Made by a program: the position numbers and the translations under genes. Source: Candidatus Magasanikbacteria bacterium RIFCSPHIGHO2_01_FULL_41_23 (lineage in GTDB: Bacteria > Patescibacteriota > Patescibacteriia > Magasanikbacterales > UBA922). Taken from it: a stretch of DNA of 64,000 nucleotides. The DNA lies in assembly GCA_001782805.1 (NCBI GenBank), contig MFPT01000004.1, positions 41,294 through 105,293 of the forward strand, written 5' to 3'. The notes under the pieces are model-generated. The model was not told the DNA's origin, ran no database searches, and worked only from the letters and a program-made list of their open reading frames with translations. Positions 2,438 to 64,000 of the stretch are shown piece after piece (the stretch's first letter is position 1; every line of letters starts with the position of its first letter).

Positions 2438-2890
2438 ATGTCCAAACGGCATTTGGCTCGATCGGTTATCATGCAATCCCTATACCAATGGGATTTTAAG
2501 GATAAGCCAACTGCGGCCATACCCGCGATTATTGAACAAGTAATGTTGGAATTTGGCGCGGGAATTGAAGATACCAAAGACTATATTGTCAAAACGATCA
2601 GCGGAATTTTGGATAATGTTGAAAAAATAGATGATATTATAAAACAATACGCGCCCAATTGGCCGATTTCTGAAATGTCTATTGTTGACCGCAACATTTT
2701 GCGTCTGGGAGTTTTTGAACTTAAATTAAACGATCATATCCCTCCAAAAGTCGCGATTAACGAAGCCATTGAACTGGCCAAAAGTTATGGCGGTCCGTCA
2801 TCGGGAAAATTTATAAATGGTATTTTGGGCGGGATGTATAATGATATGCCGCATTCTGATGTCAGCCTCGCTGAACCGACCAAAGAATAA
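2438..2890 (+). CDS. nusB: Transcription antitermination factor NusB
   Basis: 150 aa. N-terminal [11 protein letters not shown] motif and size typical of NusB. Confidence 0.85.
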
Positions 2891-2911
2891 TAATTCGCGC
2901 TCACTACTAAT

Positions 2912-3673
2912 ATGCCAATCACTAGTTATTTGGAAAAAAAATTCCCGGCTCTGGAAAAAAAAATTGGCGTTGCTTTTCGCAATCCGGATTTGTTGGTGCA
3001 AGCATTGGTGCATCGGTCATTTTTAAATGAAAATAGAAATTTTCCTTTGGCGCACAATGAACGACTGGAATTTTTGGGTGACGCGGTGCTGGAATTAATC
3101 GTCACTGAATTTCTGTTTGAAAATTATCTTAATCCCGAAGGTGAATTGACGAATTGGCGCGCGGCTTTGGTAAATGCGAATATGTGCGCAGTCGTGGCGC
3201 AAGAAATTGATTTGGAACCATATCTTTTTTTGAGTCATGGCGAATCCAAAGACGCCAACACTAAAGCACGCGGATATATTTTGGCCAATGCACTTGAAGC
3301 AGTGATTGGCGCAATTTATTTGGATCAAGGATCGGAAATAGCCAAACAATTCGTCACTCGTTGGGTTTTGACCAAATTGCCGGAAGTTTTGGAACTTGGT
3401 TTATGGATGGATCCCAAATCGCGCTTTCAGGAAGGCGCGCAAGAAGTGGTGGGAATCACGCCAACATATCGAGTTCTCAAAGAAGAAGGTCCGGATCATG
3501 AAAAAAATTTCGTCATTGGCGTATATCTGGGCAAAGAAAAAGTCGCGGAAGGATTTGGCACGAGCAAACAAGAAGCGCAAACTGATGCCGCGGAAAAAGC
3601 CTTGCGTATCAAAGGCTGGAAAGGCCCGAAAGTTGATATTATAACCAGAACACAAACCGATCCAATTGGTTAA
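2912..3673 (+). CDS. rnc: Ribonuclease III
   Basis: 253 aa. RNase III catalytic signature ERLEFLGDAVLEL, plus a C-terminal dsRBD region. Confidence 0.9.
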   Translation: MPITSYLEKKFPALEKKIGVAFRNPDLLVQALVHRSFLNENRNFPLAHNERLEFLGDAVLELIVTEFLFENYLNPEGELTNWRAALVNANMCAVVAQEIDLEPYLFLSHGESKDANTKARGYILANALEAVIGAIYLDQGSEIAKQFVTRWVLTKLPEVLELGLWMDPKSRFQEGAQEVVGITPTYRVLKEEGPDHEKNFVIGVYLGKEKVAEGFGTSKQEAQTDAAEKALRIKGWKGPKVDIITRTQTDPIG

Positions 3674-3697
3674 AATTACAAATTTAAAAAAAGATAC

Positions 3698-3770
3698 GGG
3701 CCGGTAGCTCAGCTGGTAGAGCAGATCCCTCTTAAGGATAAGGTCCTGGGTTCGATCCCCAGCCGGCCCA
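3698..3770 (+). tRNA. tRNA-Lys (anticodon CTT)
   Basis: Manually folded cloverleaf: acceptor GGGCCGG/CCGGCCC, D-arm GCTCAGCTGGTAGAGC, anticodon loop CTCTTAA, T-arm CTGGGTTCGATCCCCAG, discriminator A. No encoded CCA. Confidence 0.8.
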
Positions 3771-3776
3771 CTAAAA

Positions 3777-3851
3777 GCTCCTGTCGTTCAACGGATAGGA
3801 CAACAGCCTTCGAAGCTGTATATGGGGGTTCGATTCCCTCCGGGAGCACCA
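3777..3851 (+). tRNA. tRNA-Arg (anticodon TCG)
   Basis: Cloverleaf: acceptor GCTCCTG/CGGGAGC, anticodon stem ACAGC/GCTGT with loop CTTCGAA, T-arm GGGGGTTCGATTCCCTC. CCA is encoded. Confidence 0.75.
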
Positions 3852-3893
3852 TTCGACTCGTCCATACGTTCCTTCGCTCATGGTAAACCATTT

Positions 3894-5645
3894 TTATTCC
3901 ACTGCAATCGGATCAACTGTAAATGAAATCAAATCATTGGTTTCAGCATCCGTAGCCTTAACTGAAATTGGTCCAGTATAATTCTTTTGATTGGAATTGG
4001 AATCTGATTTATTAAATATTAAGCCAAACTCCATCGCCAACAAATCCAGACTCGTCGGCATTTCTTTAATTGTCCAGACAACTTCATTTCTTTCTTCGGA
4101 AAAAACGACATTACCTGCGGGAACATTAAGTTTTTGTTCATCCCAAGATACATTACCCAGGAGTGTCGTGCTTACGGTCACATTTTTCAAATCATGAAAA
4201 CTATTGGTGAGCAAAAAGGAAAAATTACTAAGATCCAAATCACTGGAGACACTTGCTTTCAAGCTTAAATCAGATAAAATCTTCACAACTACCGGATTGG
4301 TAGTAGCCAGTACTTCGCCATTACTGCGAATTTCACCCCAAACAGTCACTGTACTCGTACTAAAATTAACCAGACTGGTGTTGTCGCCATCTTTAATGGG
4401 CAATGAAATATTAAATATTGATTTTCCGCCATTGGAAAAATCATTAAGTTGGCTATTGGGTTCATTTCCCCAAAAAATAGTACCACGACGAACGAACTCG
4501 TTTATTTGTTCGCCTTTAACAGCGCCATTGTTATGATCAATTAAATTCTGCCAATCCAAAATACTTTTTTTCTGATAGCTGGGCGCTTCAATGTATAAGA
4601 CCGCGGTCAAATTCGGATATATGGTATCACTTGAATTTTGAAAAGAAATTTGAATCGGGAGTTTTTGACCCGGACGAATAGTAACTTGTTCGGCATTTCC
4701 AAACATTGTGGCCGAAGCACTGATCGTCGACGAGGTTAAGGTAAAATTTGTTTCGGTTTGAGAGTAAACAAATTTTTTATGCAAAACTTTAGTCACAAAA
4801 TTAGGATTGATATTTCCACCGGAAAACAGGCCGTGAATGGTAAAAGTAGTCATAGTCGTTAATTTAGGTAACGTCCAACGAAACAAATCAGGTTCATCCG
4901 GCTTGGGGTTGATTTCCTGAGCGAAAAAACTTTGATCCGGTTGAAGCGCAACAATCACCGGTTCAGTAAACGGATAAATTGGCTGAACCGTAAATGAAAG
5001 TGTGGTTGGAACATTCGCGTTAAAAACTGTTGGCTGATTCCAAATAATAGTGGCGGCCGGAATACTGGCCACTGTTTGAAAATTGGCGACTTTTTCAAAT
5101 ACTGAATTGAAATTACCCGGAGTATATGACAAAACCGCAGTTAGTGTTGATGTGGCAAATTGATCAACCAATAATCGACCACTCAAAATAACCGTGCCGC
5201 CTGATCCGGCGGGAATACTTCCCAAAACAATCGTTGAACGTTCACCCAAAACTGTGGGCGAACTGCTTACAAATACAAAACCCCGCGGATATTGAAAACT
5301 CAAACTGGCATGAGCAATGGGCAAGGCTTCCGCATTTCGATAACGCACCGTGTAGGTAATCGTATCACCCGAAGCTATTATTGAGGGAGCTTCAACACTA
5401 ACTGAAATTTGATCATTATATACTAAATTTGGCGTGGCGTATCGCCATACAACCCAGCCCAAAATTCCCAATCCGCAAAAAACAAAAAAACAAGTCAACA
5501 AACGCCAAAACCAGATGCCGTTTGAGCGATCAAACGTTTTCATGTCCGGCATACTGCCATCGGAATTTTCATAAATCTTGCGCAAATTTTCCTCGATCTT
5601 ACGCGGCTCGGACACGGTTATTTTTTTTGATTTTGAACGAGACAT
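3894..5645 (-). CDS. Large bitopic surface protein (short cytoplasmic N-terminus, one TM helix, ~500-aa Thr/Ser/Asn-rich extracytoplasmic beta-rich region); function unknown
   Basis: 583 aa. TM helix WFWRLLTCFFVFCGLGILGWVVW. No recognisable catalytic motifs. Confidence 0.6.
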   Translation of the reverse strand: MSRSKSKKITVSEPRKIEENLRKIYENSDGSMPDMKTFDRSNGIWFWRLLTCFFVFCGLGILGWVVWRYATPNLVYNDQISVSVEAPSIIASGDTITYTVRYRNAEALPIAHASLSFQYPRGFVFVSSSPTVLGERSTIVLGSIPAGSGGTVILSGRLLVDQFATSTLTAVLSYTPGNFNSVFEKVANFQTVASIPAATIIWNQPTVFNANVPTTLSFTVQPIYPFTEPVIVALQPDQSFFAQEINPKPDEPDLFRWTLPKLTTMTTFTIHGLFSGGNINPNFVTKVLHKKFVYSQTETNFTLTSSTISASATMFGNAEQVTIRPGQKLPIQISFQNSSDTIYPNLTAVLYIEAPSYQKKSILDWQNLIDHNNGAVKGEQINEFVRRGTIFWGNEPNSQLNDFSNGGKSIFNISLPIKDGDNTSLVNFSTSTVTVWGEIRSNGEVLATTNPVVVKILSDLSLKASVSSDLDLSNFSFLLTNSFHDLKNVTVSTTLLGNVSWDEQKLNVPAGNVVFSEERNEVVWTIKEMPTSLDLLAMEFGLIFNKSDSNSNQKNYTGPISVKATDAETNDLISFTVDPIAVE

Positions 5646-5652
5646 AAAAAAA

Positions 5653-8019
5653 TTAATAAATGGAATTTTGACTCATGACTACGCCAAACAATTCGTCTGT
5701 AGTTAATGTATCTGCCCAACGCAAACCGTTTGTACCAATTTCCGCATCATCGCGATTCCGCCATATCGGCGACCAGCCGTCCGGATAAATAATTTGTGTG
5801 GAAAAATTACTGTTGGTTCCGGATTGTTTTTGTACCAAAAGACTGTATCGTGATGGTGGCGCGGTTACAAAAAAAGGCAATTTGTAAGTAAACCAAACTT
5901 CAGTATCCTCACCGGCTTTGGTAGTGATCCAATTACCAAACACAGTTTTGTTAAATTCATTGGTAATGCGCGTTCCGCTACCGACATGAAAACCACGCTC
6001 AGTTTCATGAGTCTTTAAATCCTCGTCGTCAGTGTACCATTTTTCCGGAACCTTAAATGACTCTTCTTCCGGATAGACAAAACCACTGGCATTTATAATT
6101 TCTGCTCCTTCCGGAACATAAACGCGGACATAACTATTGTTGGGACGACCATAAAGCGCATCACTGGGATTACCGCTATGTTTACGGCGAATAATAACCG
6201 TGTCAACAATGCTTCGATCAGGTTGAACGACAGCTTGATGCTCAATTTCATCGGTAATCCGCGCGTCACTTTTGGCGCCGCCCAAATTAGTATTAACCAC
6301 CATTAGATAATCCTGTGTTGGCAACGTGGCAGTGATTTCTCCAGTCCATCCCAATTCGGAAAATTTCTTTTGCGCGGCGGAATCTACGGTATAAATCTGA
6401 ATTTCTTTTTGCGTCAAGGCCGTGCCAAGTTCACTGACCAATGAAATTATTTGTCCGGAATTTATGACTCCGGCATTATTAATTAATTGATGAAACACAT
6501 CGCCAATTATGGCCTTTGGGCGATTCAAAGCCTTATCCTCGCCAGTCTCAACTTCGGTTTGCAATTTTTCCAGAGCATCAGCCGCGGTTAATTGCAATTG
6601 ATAATGATCATTTTGAAGTGGACCGATTACCTTTAAAATCCGTTCCAGAACCGAAGCATTGACCGCAATCACTCCATCAACGGTTGAGTCACGACTATGT
6701 TTATAAAACCAAGCGATTTTTTGCGCTGAAGCGGGAAAATCCGGAAACCAATTCGCATCCTGAAATTCCCAACGAGGATTGGCGATTTGTAATGGTAATG
6801 GCGGTTTGACAAACGTATCCAGCTGGCCTTGCAAATCATAACTGCCTCCCGGCGGCACTTCCAAATTCATGATCTTGCCACGTTGAACATCAAGTATGGC
6901 CATGCTGCCAATAAAACCACCGGTCGGACGCAATTCATGATGATTTTGAAACACCAATAAATAACGTCGCGGAGAATCGCTTCCGAGCACTGTTTCCAAT
7001 CCGGTTATAACCGAAGTCATTTTTTGCAAATCACCAATCAAACCGGCAAACAGCACTTTAAAATCAGCAAAAGAATTTTGATATTCAACCGGCAATGTTT
7101 GGGATTTGACTTGTGCTAATTCCATGAGCGCGTTTTGATACTGCGGCACAGCGCCACGAATATGAATTTTTAAAATATTCATGCGTTCCAAAAAATCAGC
7201 TTTACTGGAAGATGCCGCTGCCTCACCAATCCCTTTAACCAAATACGTATTACCAAGCGCGACCATATGTCCGGCCGCCAAAATATGCTGACGACTGACA
7301 ACTTTTTCGCCAACAACCGGTAAAATACTGGCGATATAAATAAGAGCACGATGCTCTTTTTCAATCATGGCTTCAACATTGCCAAATGAATTAAGGGCAA
7401 CGTTCAAATCAAGCTGAGCTTGGGGTAAATTAGTGGCCAAAGCCGCGGCTGTGGATGATTGCAAAGACAAAAAAGCATTCACGCTTTCACTAACCAAATA
7501 ATTGCTATCGTGACGTAATTTTTGATAATAAGAAAATGCCGGATATGGCACAAGCAACAGAACAACGAGTGCGAATGCGGTCCAGACAAAAAAACGAAGT
7601 TCAAGACGAGCACAAAATTCGATATAGCTTGCCGCGATTCGTTTTAAAAAAGATTTTTTTGAGACGATGTCACTGGATTCTGAGTCAATATCTTGATTTG
7701 GTTCAGCTTCATTGCGATTGGCTTTTTTGACTAAGCTGGCAAAATCAATGACAACACGTTTGGGTTGTTCTGGAGTAATTTCGGAAAAAATCGGAAAATT
7801 TAACGGTGAATTGATGGATTTTTTTTGACTAAGCGTCACAACATGAGCTGATTGTCGTGGCTTCCTGGAAAAATGTACGGGGACATGTGTCGCGCGAATC
7901 GCCCGAGCTTCGGCTACTGGACAATCTGTTTTTATATGCCCAATTTTTTGGCAAACTGAACATGGGCGATTAATCGCTGTTTTGTTTTTTAACGATGATG
8001 TATTTTTTTTATAATTCAC
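5653..8019 (-). CDS. Large bitopic membrane protein with N-terminal cytoplasmic CCHC zinc knuckle and a large extracytoplasmic domain (DUF4012-like, from memory)
   Basis: 788 aa, GTG start. CSVCQKIGHIKTDC matches C-X2-C-X4-H-X4-C. TM at ~residues 135-160. Downstream motif ELRPTGGFIGS. Confidence 0.6.
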   Translation of the reverse strand: MNYKKNTSSLKNKTAINRPCSVCQKIGHIKTDCPVAEARAIRATHVPVHFSRKPRQSAHVVTLSQKKSINSPLNFPIFSEITPEQPKRVVIDFASLVKKANRNEAEPNQDIDSESSDIVSKKSFLKRIAASYIEFCARLELRFFVWTAFALVVLLLVPYPAFSYYQKLRHDSNYLVSESVNAFLSLQSSTAAALATNLPQAQLDLNVALNSFGNVEAMIEKEHRALIYIASILPVVGEKVVSRQHILAAGHMVALGNTYLVKGIGEAAASSSKADFLERMNILKIHIRGAVPQYQNALMELAQVKSQTLPVEYQNSFADFKVLFAGLIGDLQKMTSVITGLETVLGSDSPRRYLLVFQNHHELRPTGGFIGSMAILDVQRGKIMNLEVPPGGSYDLQGQLDTFVKPPLPLQIANPRWEFQDANWFPDFPASAQKIAWFYKHSRDSTVDGVIAVNASVLERILKVIGPLQNDHYQLQLTAADALEKLQTEVETGEDKALNRPKAIIGDVFHQLINNAGVINSGQIISLVSELGTALTQKEIQIYTVDSAAQKKFSELGWTGEITATLPTQDYLMVVNTNLGGAKSDARITDEIEHQAVVQPDRSIVDTVIIRRKHSGNPSDALYGRPNNSYVRVYVPEGAEIINASGFVYPEEESFKVPEKWYTDDEDLKTHETERGFHVGSGTRITNEFNKTVFGNWITTKAGEDTEVWFTYKLPFFVTAPPSRYSLLVQKQSGTNSNFSTQIIYPDGWSPIWRNRDDAEIGTNGLRWADTLTTDELFGVVMSQNSIY

Positions 8020-35562: not shown

Positions 35563-37509
35563 ATGCTTAAAAAAATCATCATTGGTTTTTGTTTCTTGTT
35601 TGGTATTTTTTTGTTTGAGAATCAAGCGCAGGCAGTTGATTCAACAAATAAAGCATCAAAATGTTGGACAAAAACAGCGTGTGAAAGTGCCAGAGCCGGA
35701 TTTGGCGGTGTTCCGGGCGAAGGTTTGTATACCGGATCTGATGCACAAGAATTGTGTGGAAAAGACCATCTAGTCCCCGGAGGTGGAAAAGAGCCTACTG
35801 GTTTTTGTCTGCCAGCCGGCCAATCAATCACCAAAATTTCCTTTGGTGGAAAACAAACATTTGCCAACTTCGGGGAATTTATCCAATACATTTACCGCTA
35901 TGGTATGTGGTTGGCCGGCATTCTGGCAGTTGCTTTTATTGTTATTTCCGGTTTGCAGTGGGCTGCTTCGGGTGGTAATTCTGATATGATCGGATCAGCC
36001 AAAAATAGAATTACCGGAGCCGTAACCGGACTTATTTTATTAGCACTGTCTTATACTATTCTTAGTACAATCAATCCATATTTGGTCCAATTACGTTTGC
36101 CACAAACCTGGATGATAAACAGAATTGGCATGGCCGCAGCGTTTTGTAGCGATGCAAAAGATGCAAAAATATCTCTTTTTACAAAATCTGATACTTCACA
36201 AATAGAAAAAGAAAAAATAAAAGCAACTAAATTGGCAGAGGTTGAAAGCAAAGGATATAAAGAAACATACCTAAATGCAAAATGTGGTTATGAGTATTTT
36301 GTGGATGGCACGTCCGGACAAACGTGCCAAGGGAATATTTGTGGAGGAGGAATATGTGGATCAGCAATCAAAGATAAAAAATTGACATCTAATAAAGTAT
36401 GCTACGAGGGTGATTTGATAATAAAATTTTCAGCAGACATGGCCAATAACTTTCTTTCCCAAGCTCCTTTTCTCGGTATTGGCTTCGCTCAACTTAAGGA
36501 TAAATGGCTGACTAATAATCTAGTAATATACGGAGTTTGTGAAATGCCAAATAATGGAGTCTGTTCATCTGACCAAACTATTAGCGGTGGTGAAAAAATA
36601 AAAATGAGTCAGAGCACTCTCGAGGGCGAAGTTCTCTCCAACTATTTACGAATATACCATGGGATTAGAGACCTTGGTGCCGGTACCTTTTGTAAAGATA
36701 CTGAATTAAAGAATTTAAAAGGAATAATAATAAAAACCGAACTTGACGAGAACTGGAAATTCACTGATCCTAATTTATACATTGCCATACCCTCGTCAGG
36801 AAATAACGCATACATAGGAGATTTTAAAACTGTTTTTGATAAAGTAAAAGCTGAAGATTCAGCTAAAGTATACGAAAGATTAAAGGTTGGTTTAGAATTA
36901 AATGCCCTCGTAACGTTTAACATGTTCTCCAAAATTTCTGATGAAGACTGGAGTGGACCAAATGATCTAGAATTCGAGGAGTTATGTAAAAATTACACAT
37001 CTAGTGAAGATGGTGCTGAAGTAAAATTAAAACTAAAAAAAGATACTGGTGGCTTCTGCTTCCTAGCTGGCACTGAAATTCTGACACCGGCTGGAAATAA
37101 AAAAATTGAAATGCTGGGAACCGGTGACGAAGTGATCTCTTATAATATTGAGGATGGTAGTTACCATATCGGAAAAATCGCTGGTGTACGCAAACAAAAT
37201 AGTGAAGCATATTATTTAATAAACCATGGCCTTCTTCGGGTCACTGATCAGCATCCTATATACTTAAGAAAGAAATCAAACAAACAAACTGGATGGGCGT
37301 CTAACAATCCTTCGGGGACACATAAATTAACTGGTCTAAACGTCATGCAATTAGAAGTTGGTGATGAAGTCTTTACAGATAACAAAAAATGGGTTAATAT
37401 CACAGATATTGTCCATATTTCAAAGGAAGTCGAGACCTATAATGTACTCAATGTTGAACCCTATAACACATACTTCGCAAACGGTATCCTAGTACACAAC
37501 AAAATATAG
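35563..37509 (+). CDS. Secreted Cys-rich protein: signal peptide + VirB2/TrbC-pilin-like double-TM segment + C-terminal Hint (intein/hedgehog-type) autoprocessing domain
   Basis: Signal peptide [24 protein letters not shown]. Hydrophobic pair [49 protein letters not shown] resembles conjugative pilin. More than 20 Cys in the extracytoplasmic part. C-terminal ~150 aa has Hint blocks [10 protein letters not shown] (A), RVTDQHPIY (B, TxxH), and [23 protein letters not shown] (F/G), ending VHNKI-stop. Confidence 0.75.
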
Positions 37510-62066: not shown

Positions 62067-62103
62067 TTTTTAAAAAAACCACAGAAATAAAAAAGATCCA
62101 AAT

Positions 62104-62209
<106 letters not shown>

Positions 62210-62570
62210 ATTTGAATCTCTTTTATCCCGCCGAAGTCCGAAGGACAAAGGCGGGGTTTTGTTTAGGATTTGGGTAATTAAAGCCCTGTACGGGCTTGAA
62301 AAGCACAACTAAGTGCTTCTGTAGTGTTGGGTCAATTAGTACGCCTCGGCATACACCTAGCGCCTATCAATCTGGTCGTCTACCAGAGACCTCATAACGA
62401 ATATTAATCTTAAGAACGGCTTCGCACTTAGATGCTTTCAGCGCTTATCCGTGCCGAACTTAGCTACCCAGCTATGCCTTGCGGACAACTGGCACACCAG
62501 AGGTTCGTCAATCCCGGTCCTCTCGTACTAGGGATTGGTTCTCTCAATATTCAACGCCCACAGCAGATAG

Positions 62571-62622
<52 letters not shown>

Positions 62623-62635
62623 TGGCGAACAGCCA

Positions 62636-62666
<31 letters not shown>

Positions 62667-62681
62667 CGATGAGCCGACATC

Positions 62682-63037
62682 GTACTTTGTTCCACAGTTT
62701 CTTGTGGCGTAGACTATATCTTCTTCTTGCTCTGGATGGTAGCGGATGCCGACAAGTCGGCACGTGATCCGCGTAATCTCAGTTTGACTGTGCAAGAGTC
62801 GGCGTGTTGTCTCTCCTGATCATTAATCAGGAAAAACCTCCCCTTTCGGGTCAGTCGTTACGGGGTTATCCCGACATTGTCGGGAAACTTCCCACGGTAT
62901 TGCCGGGTGATTGTGGGTCAATCACTGACGGGTTCACCGTTATAAGCCGAATTTGTGTCTCTTAATCTATCTAAATTTAAAATTTTAACGAAAAGAATTG
63001 GGATAAACATTACTGTTTGTGCACCCCGATATGTTAA
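62682..63037 (-). mobile_element. ORF-less group I-type intron in 23S rRNA at the peptidyl-transferase centre (about E. coli position 2500)
   Basis: ~355-nt insertion between exon sequences GGCACCU and CGAUGUCGG. Contains group I S-element-like AAGAAGATATAGTCTAC and R-like GAGATTA. Confidence 0.7.
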
Positions 63038-63571
63038 GGTGCCAAACCGCGCCGTCGCTGTGGACGCTTGGGCGCGATCAGCCTGTTATCCCCGGAGTAG
63101 CTTTTATCCGTTGAGCTTCCGCCGTCCTATATCGTACGGTCGGATCACTAACTTCCGCTTTCGCGACTGATCGGGTGGTAGCCCTTTCAGTAAAGCTGGC
63201 TTTTGCGTTTGCACGTCCAGTCCGATTTCCATCCGGACTAAGCCAACCTTTGTAAACGCCTCCGTTACATTTTGGGAGGCAACCGCCCCAGTTAAACTAC
63301 CCATCAGATACTGTCTCTCTATCCTGATTCAAGGACAAAGATTAGATACATCGCTACGCAAGGGTGGTATCTCACTGACTCCCGACTTTCGTCGGGATCC
63401 CACCTATGCTGAACAAGCGAAGCAATGCACCAATATCAAACTATAGTAAAGCTTCACGGGGTCTTTTCGTCTAGTTGCGGGTATGTCGCATCTTCACGAC
63501 ACTTGCATTTTCGCCGAGTACATCGTCAAGACAGTCCACTCATCATTATGCCATTCGTGCGGGTCGGAACT

Positions 63572-64000
63572 CCAAATTGTGTTAACTCCGCGTTCCCACG
63601 GAGATCAGACTATACTTTCATCTTACTCACAATCTTTAGGAGATTTCCCTTATCATATTGTCTTGCGCCCATATTATTCATAGAGTACGCAACGTCAATA
63701 ATTTTACAAATTCCGTTTTGGGAAAGGTGGATACGCTGTTTCATTAACTCGCAAACTAATTTAAACTGTTCAAAATCTGAACGTTTAGAAGTTCGGATTG
63801 GAAACAAGTTAAAGTGCGGGATAATCTTTTTTACAAGATCAGCCAAACTTCTGACTTCGTACTTCCATGTTCTGTCGCGTTTATTAAAACGAATTGTTCC
63901 GCAGTTAAAAAACCGCTGAATTTCTTTAAGAATGTTTTTACTTCTCTCATGTTGACTGACTGTAAAAGCCGGTCTAACTTCAAGTCCTATTTTCATTCTT
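63572..64000 (-). mobile_element. Second 23S rRNA intron (about E. coli position 1917-1951), carrying a LAGLIDADG homing-endonuclease ORF; 5' part beyond window
   Basis: Exon sequence AGTTCCGACCCGCACGAATGG resumes at 63571. The upstream side does not match conserved CCUUGUCGGGUA but is coding. Confidence 0.7.
63610..64000 (-). CDS. LAGLIDADG-family homing endonuclease (C-terminal part; N-terminus with LAGLIDADG motif lies beyond window)
   Basis: SQHERSKNILKEIQRFFNCGTI...IIPHFNLFPIRTSKRSDFEQFKLVCELM matches the I-CreI-type core following the LAGLIDADG helix. Confidence 0.7.
   Translation of the reverse strand, partial: RMKIGLEVRPAFTVSQHERSKNILKEIQRFFNCGTIRFNKRDRTWKYEVRSLADLVKKIIPHFNLFPIRTSKRSDFEQFKLVCELMKQRIHLSQNGICKIIDVAYSMNNMGARQYDKGNLLKIVSKMKV

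Follow-up and report, generated by a model that had tools for sequence, protein, structure and literature searches.

The window, by which we mean the whole 64,000-nucleotide (nt) stretch analysed here, ends inside a 23S ribosomal RNA (rRNA) gene of a member of the Magasanikbacteria, read on the minus strand and interrupted by two insertions that we interpret as group I introns: intron 1, after U2500 (E. coli numbering) in the peptidyl-transferase loop, and intron 2, after U1951. The U1951 intron closely parallels one of Coxiella and is routine; the notable part of the locus is the 3' end of the U2500 intron, which has an A in place of the usual terminal G. A search with Rfam LSU_rRNA_bacteria gives a match at 62328-63504 (minus strand, 696 bits) that skips 359 nt between GGCACCU and CGAUGUCGG, and the same search of the window places a 5S rRNA at 62103-62209 (minus strand). 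Upstream of 63504 the sequence is still 23S-like (AGUUCCGACCCGCACGAAUGG...) and is preceded by non-rRNA sequence with an open reading frame (ORF) that crosses the window end. A public contig, L001, differs from the window by one mismatch in 6391 nt of overlap and extends 4985 nt past its end (window position = 68986 - L001 position). It holds the complete 23S gene (2457-6670, 4214 nt, 2201 bits with Rfam), in which a MAFFT alignment against E. coli rrlH finds two large insertions, 354 nt after E. coli 2500 and 726 nt at 1951/1952.

62316-64000, minus strand: 3' part of the 23S rRNA gene, exons and two introns (Rfam LSU_rRNA_bacteria; the gene runs past the window end)
63573-64000, minus strand: 3' 428 nt of intron 2, a 726-nt group I intron after U1951, of which the remainder would lie at 64001-64298 (L001 4688-5413; junctions of relatives; covariation)
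63037-63572, minus strand: exon between the two introns, 536 nt, E. coli 1952-2500, starting GAGUUCCGACC and ending GGCACCU (MAFFT against rrlH; Rfam alignment)
62683-63036, minus strand: intron 1, an ORF-less 354-nt group I intron after U2500 in the peptidyl-transferase loop (MAFFT, Intron_gpI, covariation, minimum free energy fold)
62316-62682, minus strand: 3' exon, E. coli 2501 to the gene end, starting CGAUGUCGG, its first six bases in P10 (Rfam; MAFFT)

An earlier note on this DNA, made from the letters alone, had seen an insertion of about 355 nt between GGCACCU and CGAUGUCGG and a second interruption, extending past the window end, in the range of about 1917-1951. The first is exactly 354 nt long and follows U2500 in the alignment with rrlH; the second is the 726-nt intron, 428 nt of which lie in the window, and its site narrows from that range to exactly U1951. 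The covariance-model alignment proposed there as a check agrees with both: the LSU_rRNA_bacteria alignment skips the first insertion, and Intron_gpI (RF00028) matches intron 1 with 33.1 bits (E 3.5e-6, permissive threshold) and intron 2, the core of which is split by an ORF, with 21.7 bits (E 0.009). Both scores are under the gathering score of 50 bits, at which Rfam calls no intron in the window, and taken alone they are a hint and no proof.

Both junctions of intron 1 are fixed by its P1 and P10 pairings. In P1 the guide, 10 nt into the intron, pairs with the end of the 5' exon and places U2500 in a U.G pair at the 5' splice site; in P10 the AUAUCG just 5' of the P1 guide pairs with the first six bases of the 3' exon, CGAUGU. 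The parts of the intron are the following.

63021-63042, minus strand: P1, exon GCACCU (63042-63037) with guide GGGUGC (63026-63021), and P10 guide AUAUCG (63032-63027), read from the sequence
62863-62950, minus strand: P3 5' strand (62950-62946) and P4-P6 domain (62940-62863), from the helix map and covariation
62799-62858, minus strand: P7 5' strand AcGACU (62858-62853), P7.1 and P7.2 hairpins (62850-62814) and P3 3' strand GCCGA (62803-62799), from the helix map and covariation
62725-62797, minus strand: P8 with a branched extension (5/6 pairs compensatory, 93.7% paired)
62711-62722, minus strand: J8/7 and P7 3' strand (AAGAUAUAGUCU), including the C of the G-binding G-C pair (sequence; covariation)
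62692-62707, minus strand: P9 hairpin CCACA-AGAAAC-UGUGG (4/5 pairs compensatory, 97.9% paired)
62683-62685, minus strand: last three bases GU-A, in which GU (62685-62684) pairs with AC (62710-62709) as P9.0 and A 62683 is terminal (P9.0 covariation)

The S-element-like sequence picked out by the first reading is AAGAUAUAGUC at 62722-62712 (minus strand). The complete map comprises P2 with a GNRA loop, an optional P2.1, P3, P4-P6 with P5a and P6a, P7, P7.1, P7.2, P8 and P9, and an unconstrained minimum free energy fold recovers P3-P6, P7.1, P7.2, P8 and P9 (z = -5.96). Relatives came from a metagenome scan with the 5' junction motif, which found at least 119 loci and, among the matches listed (a scope that holds for all counts on this family), 93 distinct complete introns of 268-910 nt. 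The pattern fixed the P1/P10 motif, and the sample consists of U2500 introns with that guide. Relatives of intron 1 have a LAGLIDADG_2 endonuclease gene in P6a, with an ORF of 193 amino acids (aa) in many A-ending members. A scan of genome contigs with the looser pattern GGCACCTN{1,20}TCGGGGTG gave chance matches in GC-rich genomes at 118 of 120 loci, and its only real U2500 introns were those of L049 (Candidatus Uhrbacteria) and L105 (Candidatus Daviesbacteria).

The 29 shortest U2500 introns, that of the window included, were aligned (alignment A1). In this alignment 85.7% of the cells pair, against 36-42% when the partners are slid, and covariation scores 0.405, where the controls reach no more than 0.112; none of 500 shuffles attains the observed value. 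Changes on both sides are found in 44 pairs overall, among them 6/7 pairs of P2, 4/5 of P3, 5/6 of P8, 4/5 of P9 and the top pair of P7, which is G-C in 21 sequences and A-U in 8; P7 is 100% paired. P4 (97.9% paired), P6 and the remainder of P7 are almost invariant, and the G-binding G-C pair of P7, beside the bulged base, is the same in 29/29 U2500 and 11/11 U1951 sequences. P1 and P10 are invariant in A1, a set selected by that very motif, and P7.1 and P7.2 are poorly aligned in it (37-62% paired). Judged by this covariation, intron 1 is a genuine group I fold, including the P3/P7 pseudoknot, as had been proposed for an ORF-less group-I-type element. The pair P7.1 and P7.2, which we take to mark subgroup IA in the Michel and Westhof 1990 classification, is present in each intron and points to the IA type for both. 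Neither insertion looks like a 23S intervening sequence, a type that RNase III cuts out without religation and that would sit as a simple extended stem in variable helix 9, 25 or 45. The two sites, 1951 and 2500, are in conserved sequence that is single-stranded or part of a loop, and each insertion has the fold of a group I core.

Two public contigs are irregular in or after their U2500 introns. In L006 (2417-2540) the contig shifts, after the conserved AAGAUAUAGUCUAC of the intron, to the 3' end of another intron, ..GGGGAAUAUGUG|ACGAGAGGACCGG, which belongs to an insertion after U2656 in the sarcin-ricin loop; the junction is probably an assembly chimera formed via the common J8/7-P7 element. 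Past its U2500 intron, the end of L003 (6315-6340) resembles a 3' exon in which most G bases have been replaced (AAUACAAUUUCCGCUCCUCACC...); it has the appearance of a low-quality artefact at a read end, and we left it out of the evidence. A regular-expression survey of sites 1917, 2656 and 2593 was dominated by anchoring artefacts, and its results were likewise left unused.

The last base of intron 1 is A 62683 in place of the nearly universal terminal G of group I introns, as the first reading had suspected. The same A is found in the independent assembly L001, and the family to which the intron belongs ends in A in 35 and in G in 58 of its 93 distinct members. The A-ending tails read ..GUA|, ..AUA| or ..ACA| before CGAUGUCGG; the nearest relatives of intron 1, L151 (79% core identity) and L198 (77%), both end ..GUA|. 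Core identity among the A-ending introns ranges from 49 to 100% (median 64%), and many of them carry an intact 193-aa LAGLIDADG_2 ORF in P6a. Because they are so diverse, and many have an intact ORF, A-ending introns are neither an assembly artefact nor obvious relics. This bears on the reading of intron 1 as a decayed relic kept unspliced in the rRNA, or of its terminal A as an assembly error. A title cited in PMC11270868 does report an unspliced 23S group I intron in Simkania, and intron 1 has no ORF; its core helices, however, are kept by compensatory change, the same end recurs in the independent assembly and in 34 other distinct sequences, and 354 nt left in the peptidyl-transferase loop would be hard to square with a working ribosome. 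We consider both versions very improbable.

The A-ending introns have a feature of their own at this end. The dinucleotide that precedes the A pairs, in 33 of the 35, with the dinucleotide directly 3' of P7 (AU:AU in 13, AC:GU in 9, GC:GU in 7, GU:AC in 3 and GU:AU in 1); shuffled controls pair in 23.2 on average, and 0/2000 shuffles reach 33. Moved by one or two bases, the register pairs in 0/35 and 10/35 introns, and in the G-ending relatives it pairs in 6/58, no better than when shuffled. P9.0 normally adjoins the terminal G, and for this reason we place the A in the terminal-G slot.

The covarying P9.0 also decides a question that the first reading had left as a choice between an atypical intron and a shifted junction. 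Were G 62685 the true terminal G, the mature rRNA would carry an extra UA between U2500 and C2501 (ligated exon GGCACCUUACGAUG), and the tail in the window, ..AAAG-UA|CGAUG, does offer this nearby G. Yet 19 of the 35 A-ending relatives (those in AUA or ACA) have no G there, P9.0 fits only with the A last (0/35 in the shifted register), and P10 pairs from C2501 on; the register of P9.0 thus excludes G 62685 as a displaced terminal G. This junction, like any other shifted one, would also alter the conserved GGCACCUCGAUGUCGG stretch, which is unchanged in E. coli rrlH and in intron-less relatives. Shifted-junction readings were rejected because each changes conserved sequence around U2500-C2501, and we give them next to no probability. 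The atypical intron is what remains of that choice, supported by P1/P10, by the A-ending third of the family and by P9.0.

A rough neighbour-joining tree of the U2500 introns shows at least 13 switches between A and G endings, both versions of P7 occur with both endings, and close pairs of introns differ by small indels at the extreme 3' end (for example ..AAUUAUGUA| and ..AAUAAUGUAUG|). Many G-ending relatives have a tail, CGACA-G, able to pair across the splice site with exon UGUCG. As a side observation, such introns (L153, L187, L165; L135-L253) have the potential for a hairpin of 5 bp made of CGACA, the terminal G and exon CGA-UGUCG, which would hold the splice site in a GCGA loop and compete with P10; tail variants with 1-3 nt inserted before the G also occur (CGACAUAG, CGACAUUG, CGACAGAG).

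At a second site, U1931, three of the six genuine introns in the loci examined also end in A (L008 4532-4793, L011, L144), with tails ..GCGAAA|AGCGAAAUU, ..GCGCAA| and ..GACUCA| and P9.0 types UU:AA, UG:CA and GG:UC. The same design of P9.0 plus A thus apparently occurs in a different intron family, to judge from these tails.

Intron 2 has a conventional end. Since it begins with AA, alignment with E. coli alone is ambiguous between 1951 and 1952. Its junctions in L001 read GUCGGGU|AAACC (5') and ...AAUUUG|GAGUUCCGACC (3'), and those of relatives read gtcgggt|GAACAC...AAAAAUUG|gagttcc in L008/L009 and gtcgggt|AAAAAU...UUAAUG|aagttcc in L014; the relatives' junctions therefore place the intron after U1951. 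All 11 distinct U1951 introns end in G, which is G 63573 in intron 2, and the guide base facing exon position 1952, compared by eye, tends to change along with it: it is C opposite G in four, U opposite A in two and part of a U.G pair in the window. We read intron 2 from these alignments as inserted after U1951 with the canonical G end, in a lineage that has G at 1952. The parts of it that lie in the window are:

63573-63626, minus strand: 3' core of intron 2, with P8 3' strand GUAAGA (63626-63621), J8/7, P7 3' strand AGUCU (63611-63607), P9 (63603-63586) and G 63573 (helix map; covariation)
63610-64000, minus strand: C-terminal 129 codons and stop of a 154-aa single-motif LAGLIDADG_1 gene in the P8 loop, its stop UAG in the P7 3' strand (Pfam; identity to protein P0001)

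P1 of intron 2 is UCGGGU/GCCCGA with U1951.G at the 5' splice site; the P1 pairs of both introns are invariant and hence give no covariation test. The core is a near motif-for-motif match to that of intron 1 (ACGGUGAA.CCC, GGCAAUACCGUGGGAAGU, GACCCCGUAACGACUGACCCGAAAGGGGAG, AUAGUCU). An alignment of the 11 U1951-site sequences (A2) is 94.7% paired against 35-42% when slid, scores 0.403 for covariation (0.10 at most in the controls) and shows compensatory changes in 7/7 pairs of P2, 3/5 of P3, 3/3 of P7.1, 3/6 of P8 and 4/5 of P9. P8 pairs across the 465-nt ORF, the last codons of which are the P8 3' strand and J8/7. By this covariation intron 2, too, is a group I intron.

The folds, the insertion sites, the recurrent terminal A and the covariation of P9.0 are established. 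We think it probable that both insertions are group I introns removed by the usual splicing, and that the exons around intron 1 are joined after its terminal A. Both introns would be transcribed as parts of the pre-23S rRNA, from which the usual two transesterifications would remove them. For intron 1, an exogenous G would attack after U2500, which the internal guide holds in the U.G pair of P1. The six-base-pair P10 and the two-base-pair P9.0 would position the 3' splice site, and the exons would be joined after the terminal A sitting in the terminal-G slot. The weaker binding of A in the unchanged G-site may be offset by P9.0 and the strong P10. We infer splicing, exon joining and endonuclease activity alike.

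Several observations weigh against this account. In well-studied group I introns the terminal G is required for the second step. The G-binding G-C pair of P7 is unchanged in the A-ending introns, with no visible compensation in the active site; a column-by-column association scan for a change partnering the terminal A returned lineage markers in P9 and the 3' tail only, and none in P7, J6/7 or J8/7. In some G-ending relatives the tail looks like an A-type end lengthened by one to three bases. Both introns score below the Rfam gathering threshold (33.1 and 21.7 against 50 bits), and the conservation of P1 and P10 cannot be assessed from a sample whose search pattern demanded both.

The unchanged G-binding pair gives some room to two other explanations. 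Intron 1 might be excised with its exons left unjoined, as a two-piece 23S like those produced by intervening sequences, or its 3' site might only be hydrolysed; a terminal A should weaken the second step, and fragmented 23S rRNA is tolerated by many bacteria, Coxiella included (PMC4990558). The P9.0 covariation is, however, specific to A-ending introns, and the six-base-pair P10 is what aligns a 3' splice site for ligation; the site, moreover, lies in the conserved peptidyl-transferase loop and in no variable helix. We therefore hold unjoined exons to be unlikely. A host factor, or a maturase acting in trans, might instead offset the missing terminal G, so that the intron would not be truly self-splicing. 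This would agree with the lack of RNA-level compensation in the active site, with intron 1 having no ORF of its own, and with the ability of LAGLIDADG proteins to serve as maturases (PMC11270868). On the other side, there is no sequence pointer to such a protein, and the A-ending design occurs with and without an ORF; a dependence on protein seems to us rather improbable. Splicing with exon joining after the terminal A remains the reading that we prefer.

More broadly, it is possible, and we propose it only tentatively from sequence comparison, that the CPR (Candidate Phyla Radiation) harbours a sizeable class of group I introns with A for the terminal G, an obligatory P9.0 and P10 and an unchanged G-site, at U2500 and apparently U1931, among which A and G endings have switched repeatedly. 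In group I chemistry a single G-binding site serves both steps, and the terminal G is required for exon joining; if A-ending introns splice accurately, exon ligation in nature does not need a terminal G to be recognised. About a third of a large and diverse U2500 family ends in A at a place, the peptidyl-transferase loop, where failure of splicing should be lethal, and the rRNA gene concerned is usually single-copy. The family offers a natural sequence set for how a group I ribozyme picks its 3' splice site without a terminal G. In practical terms, automated calling of intron boundaries that presumes a terminal G will misplace A-ending junctions. A circularisation pathway is described in which an attack by the terminal G on the 5' splice site results in unjoined exons (PMC3679873); a terminal A, maybe favoured, might suppress this pathway by removing its nucleophile, which we offer as speculation.

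The ORF of intron 2 encodes a LAGLIDADG endonuclease. The partial ORF in the window is 100% identical to the C-terminus of P0001, a 154-aa protein present on 18 public contigs, L001 among them; residues 26-154 are encoded within the window, and the motif itself lies beyond its end. Extending the sequence, as the earlier note had advised, recovers the full protein with its N-terminal motif ITGFIDGEGSF, acidic residue present. Pfam LAGLIDADG_1 (PF00961) matches the partial protein with E 1.9e-18 and the full one with E 3.3e-27 (95.8 bits, cut-off 23.1), as a single domain in 154 aa. The enzyme had been called I-CreI-like, and this holds for its single-motif architecture but not for its kinship. 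Like I-CreI, I-CeuI and I-CvuI it has one LAGLIDADG_1 domain in about 150-170 aa and lies within an rRNA group I intron. By sequence, its best matches among solved structures are domains of the I-OnuI family (E 1e-34 to 1e-20), a family of two-domain enzymes whose halves match best whereas P0001 has a single domain, and the 170-aa chain 5gkk (2e-19); I-CeuI and I-CvuI match weakly (E 0.009 and 0.02), and I-CreI is not among the best 60 of 65 solved-structure matches (E up to 1). A CPR enzyme of the LAGLIDADG_1 single-motif type, I-ShaI, was shown to be active (PMC11270868). The enzyme of intron 2 is presumably a homodimer that would drive homing by cutting, at the U1951 site, 23S genes that lack the intron. 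Intron 1 would be unable to move by itself because it has no ORF.

GroEL of the window is 100% identical to that of the metagenome-assembled genome Candidatus Magasanikbacteria bacterium RIFCSPHIGHO2_01_FULL_41_23, and the next matches are also from Magasanikbacteria, which upholds the assignment to the CPR. A relative, L008/L009, with similar genes downstream of the rRNA, has the U1951 intron (its protein 64% identical), an extra ORF-less intron at U1931 and an empty U2500 site; such presence and absence across relatives is the pattern expected of mobile introns, as far as sequence comparison goes. The lineage is one in which such insertions abound, and the remark that rRNA introns with homing endonucleases are typical of the CPR was well placed: 82% of CPR 23S genes have insertions, of which the Rfam group I model recognises 45% (Tsurumaki et al. 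2024, PMC11270868), and rRNA introns carrying LAGLIDADG genes are documented as common in the CPR. As here, the insertions of that study have CPR hosts, are group-I-like and cluster in 23S domains IV and V. LAGLIDADG_1 genes of the single-domain kind lie at a site that it numbers 1952, and versions with and without an ORF share the same sites. The authors state that their insertion coordinates are not splice junctions, and their paper gives neither junctions nor the identity of the terminal base, whereas both were determined here from sequence. No 2500 site is mentioned in its text or in the supplement examined, which contains no site table.

The nearest counterparts outside the CPR are the two introns of the 23S gene of Coxiella burnetii. 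A table in PMC1995217 lists the L1951 intron with 720 nt and a 157-aa LAGLIDADG ORF. Going by its published description, Cbu.L1951 shares with intron 2 (726 nt, 154 aa) the site after U1951 and the G end; its host is a gammaproteobacterium whereas ours belongs to the CPR, and position 1952 of its 3' exon is A where ours is G. We take Cbu.L1951 to belong to subgroup IA3, which would match the P7.1 and P7.2 seen here, where we assign no subgroup finer than IA. For intron 1 the counterpart is Cbu.L1917, likewise a bacterial 23S group I intron without a terminal G, at a different site (1917). It is reportedly the intron described by Raghavan and colleagues in 2007, and is said to end in A, to splice in vitro and in vivo and to belong to subgroup IB2. 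The title of that paper (Raghavan et al. 2007, J Bacteriol 189:6572, cited in PMC11270868) refers to a self-splicing Coxiella 23S intron without the canonical terminal G. Cbu.L1917 is a single case, whereas the A-ending design at U2500 recurs in 35/93 family members with a covarying P9.0. Literature searches on L2500 and on group I introns with a terminal A gave no result, and no description of A-ending introns as a class with a covarying P9.0 of their own was found. Taken by themselves, the two introns are new examples of a kind that is well described.

Some minor features of the locus remain. The sole difference between the window and L001 over 6.4 kb is at 62653 in the 3' exon, G against A (CUGGAGAAGG against CUGAAGAAGG), and looks like a strain-level single-nucleotide polymorphism within a conserved 23S stretch. 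Domains I and II of the 23S gene in L001 have about 310 extra nt (2692-2792, 2839-2961 and 3231-3315, after E. coli 231, 277 and 540), of which the insertion after 540 may be at the helix-25 intervening-sequence site; another contig, L002, matches L001 at only 76% identity within these segments but at 97.6% in the remainder of the 23S gene. Directly upstream of the 23S gene, in the usual place of the 16S gene in a linked operon, L001 has a 597-aa ORF (309-2102) with no Pfam match, so that the 23S and 5S genes seem not to be linked to the 16S gene. Protein genes of 66 and 111 aa annotated in public assemblies inside the 23S exons and intron 1 (window 63104-63304, minus strand, and 62432-62767, plus strand; L001 5682-5882 and 6219-6554) are spurious ORFs within rRNA. 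Elsewhere in the window, a protein of 648 aa encoded at 35563-37509 (plus strand) weakly matches two domains, a type IV secretion pilin domain and a Hint domain.

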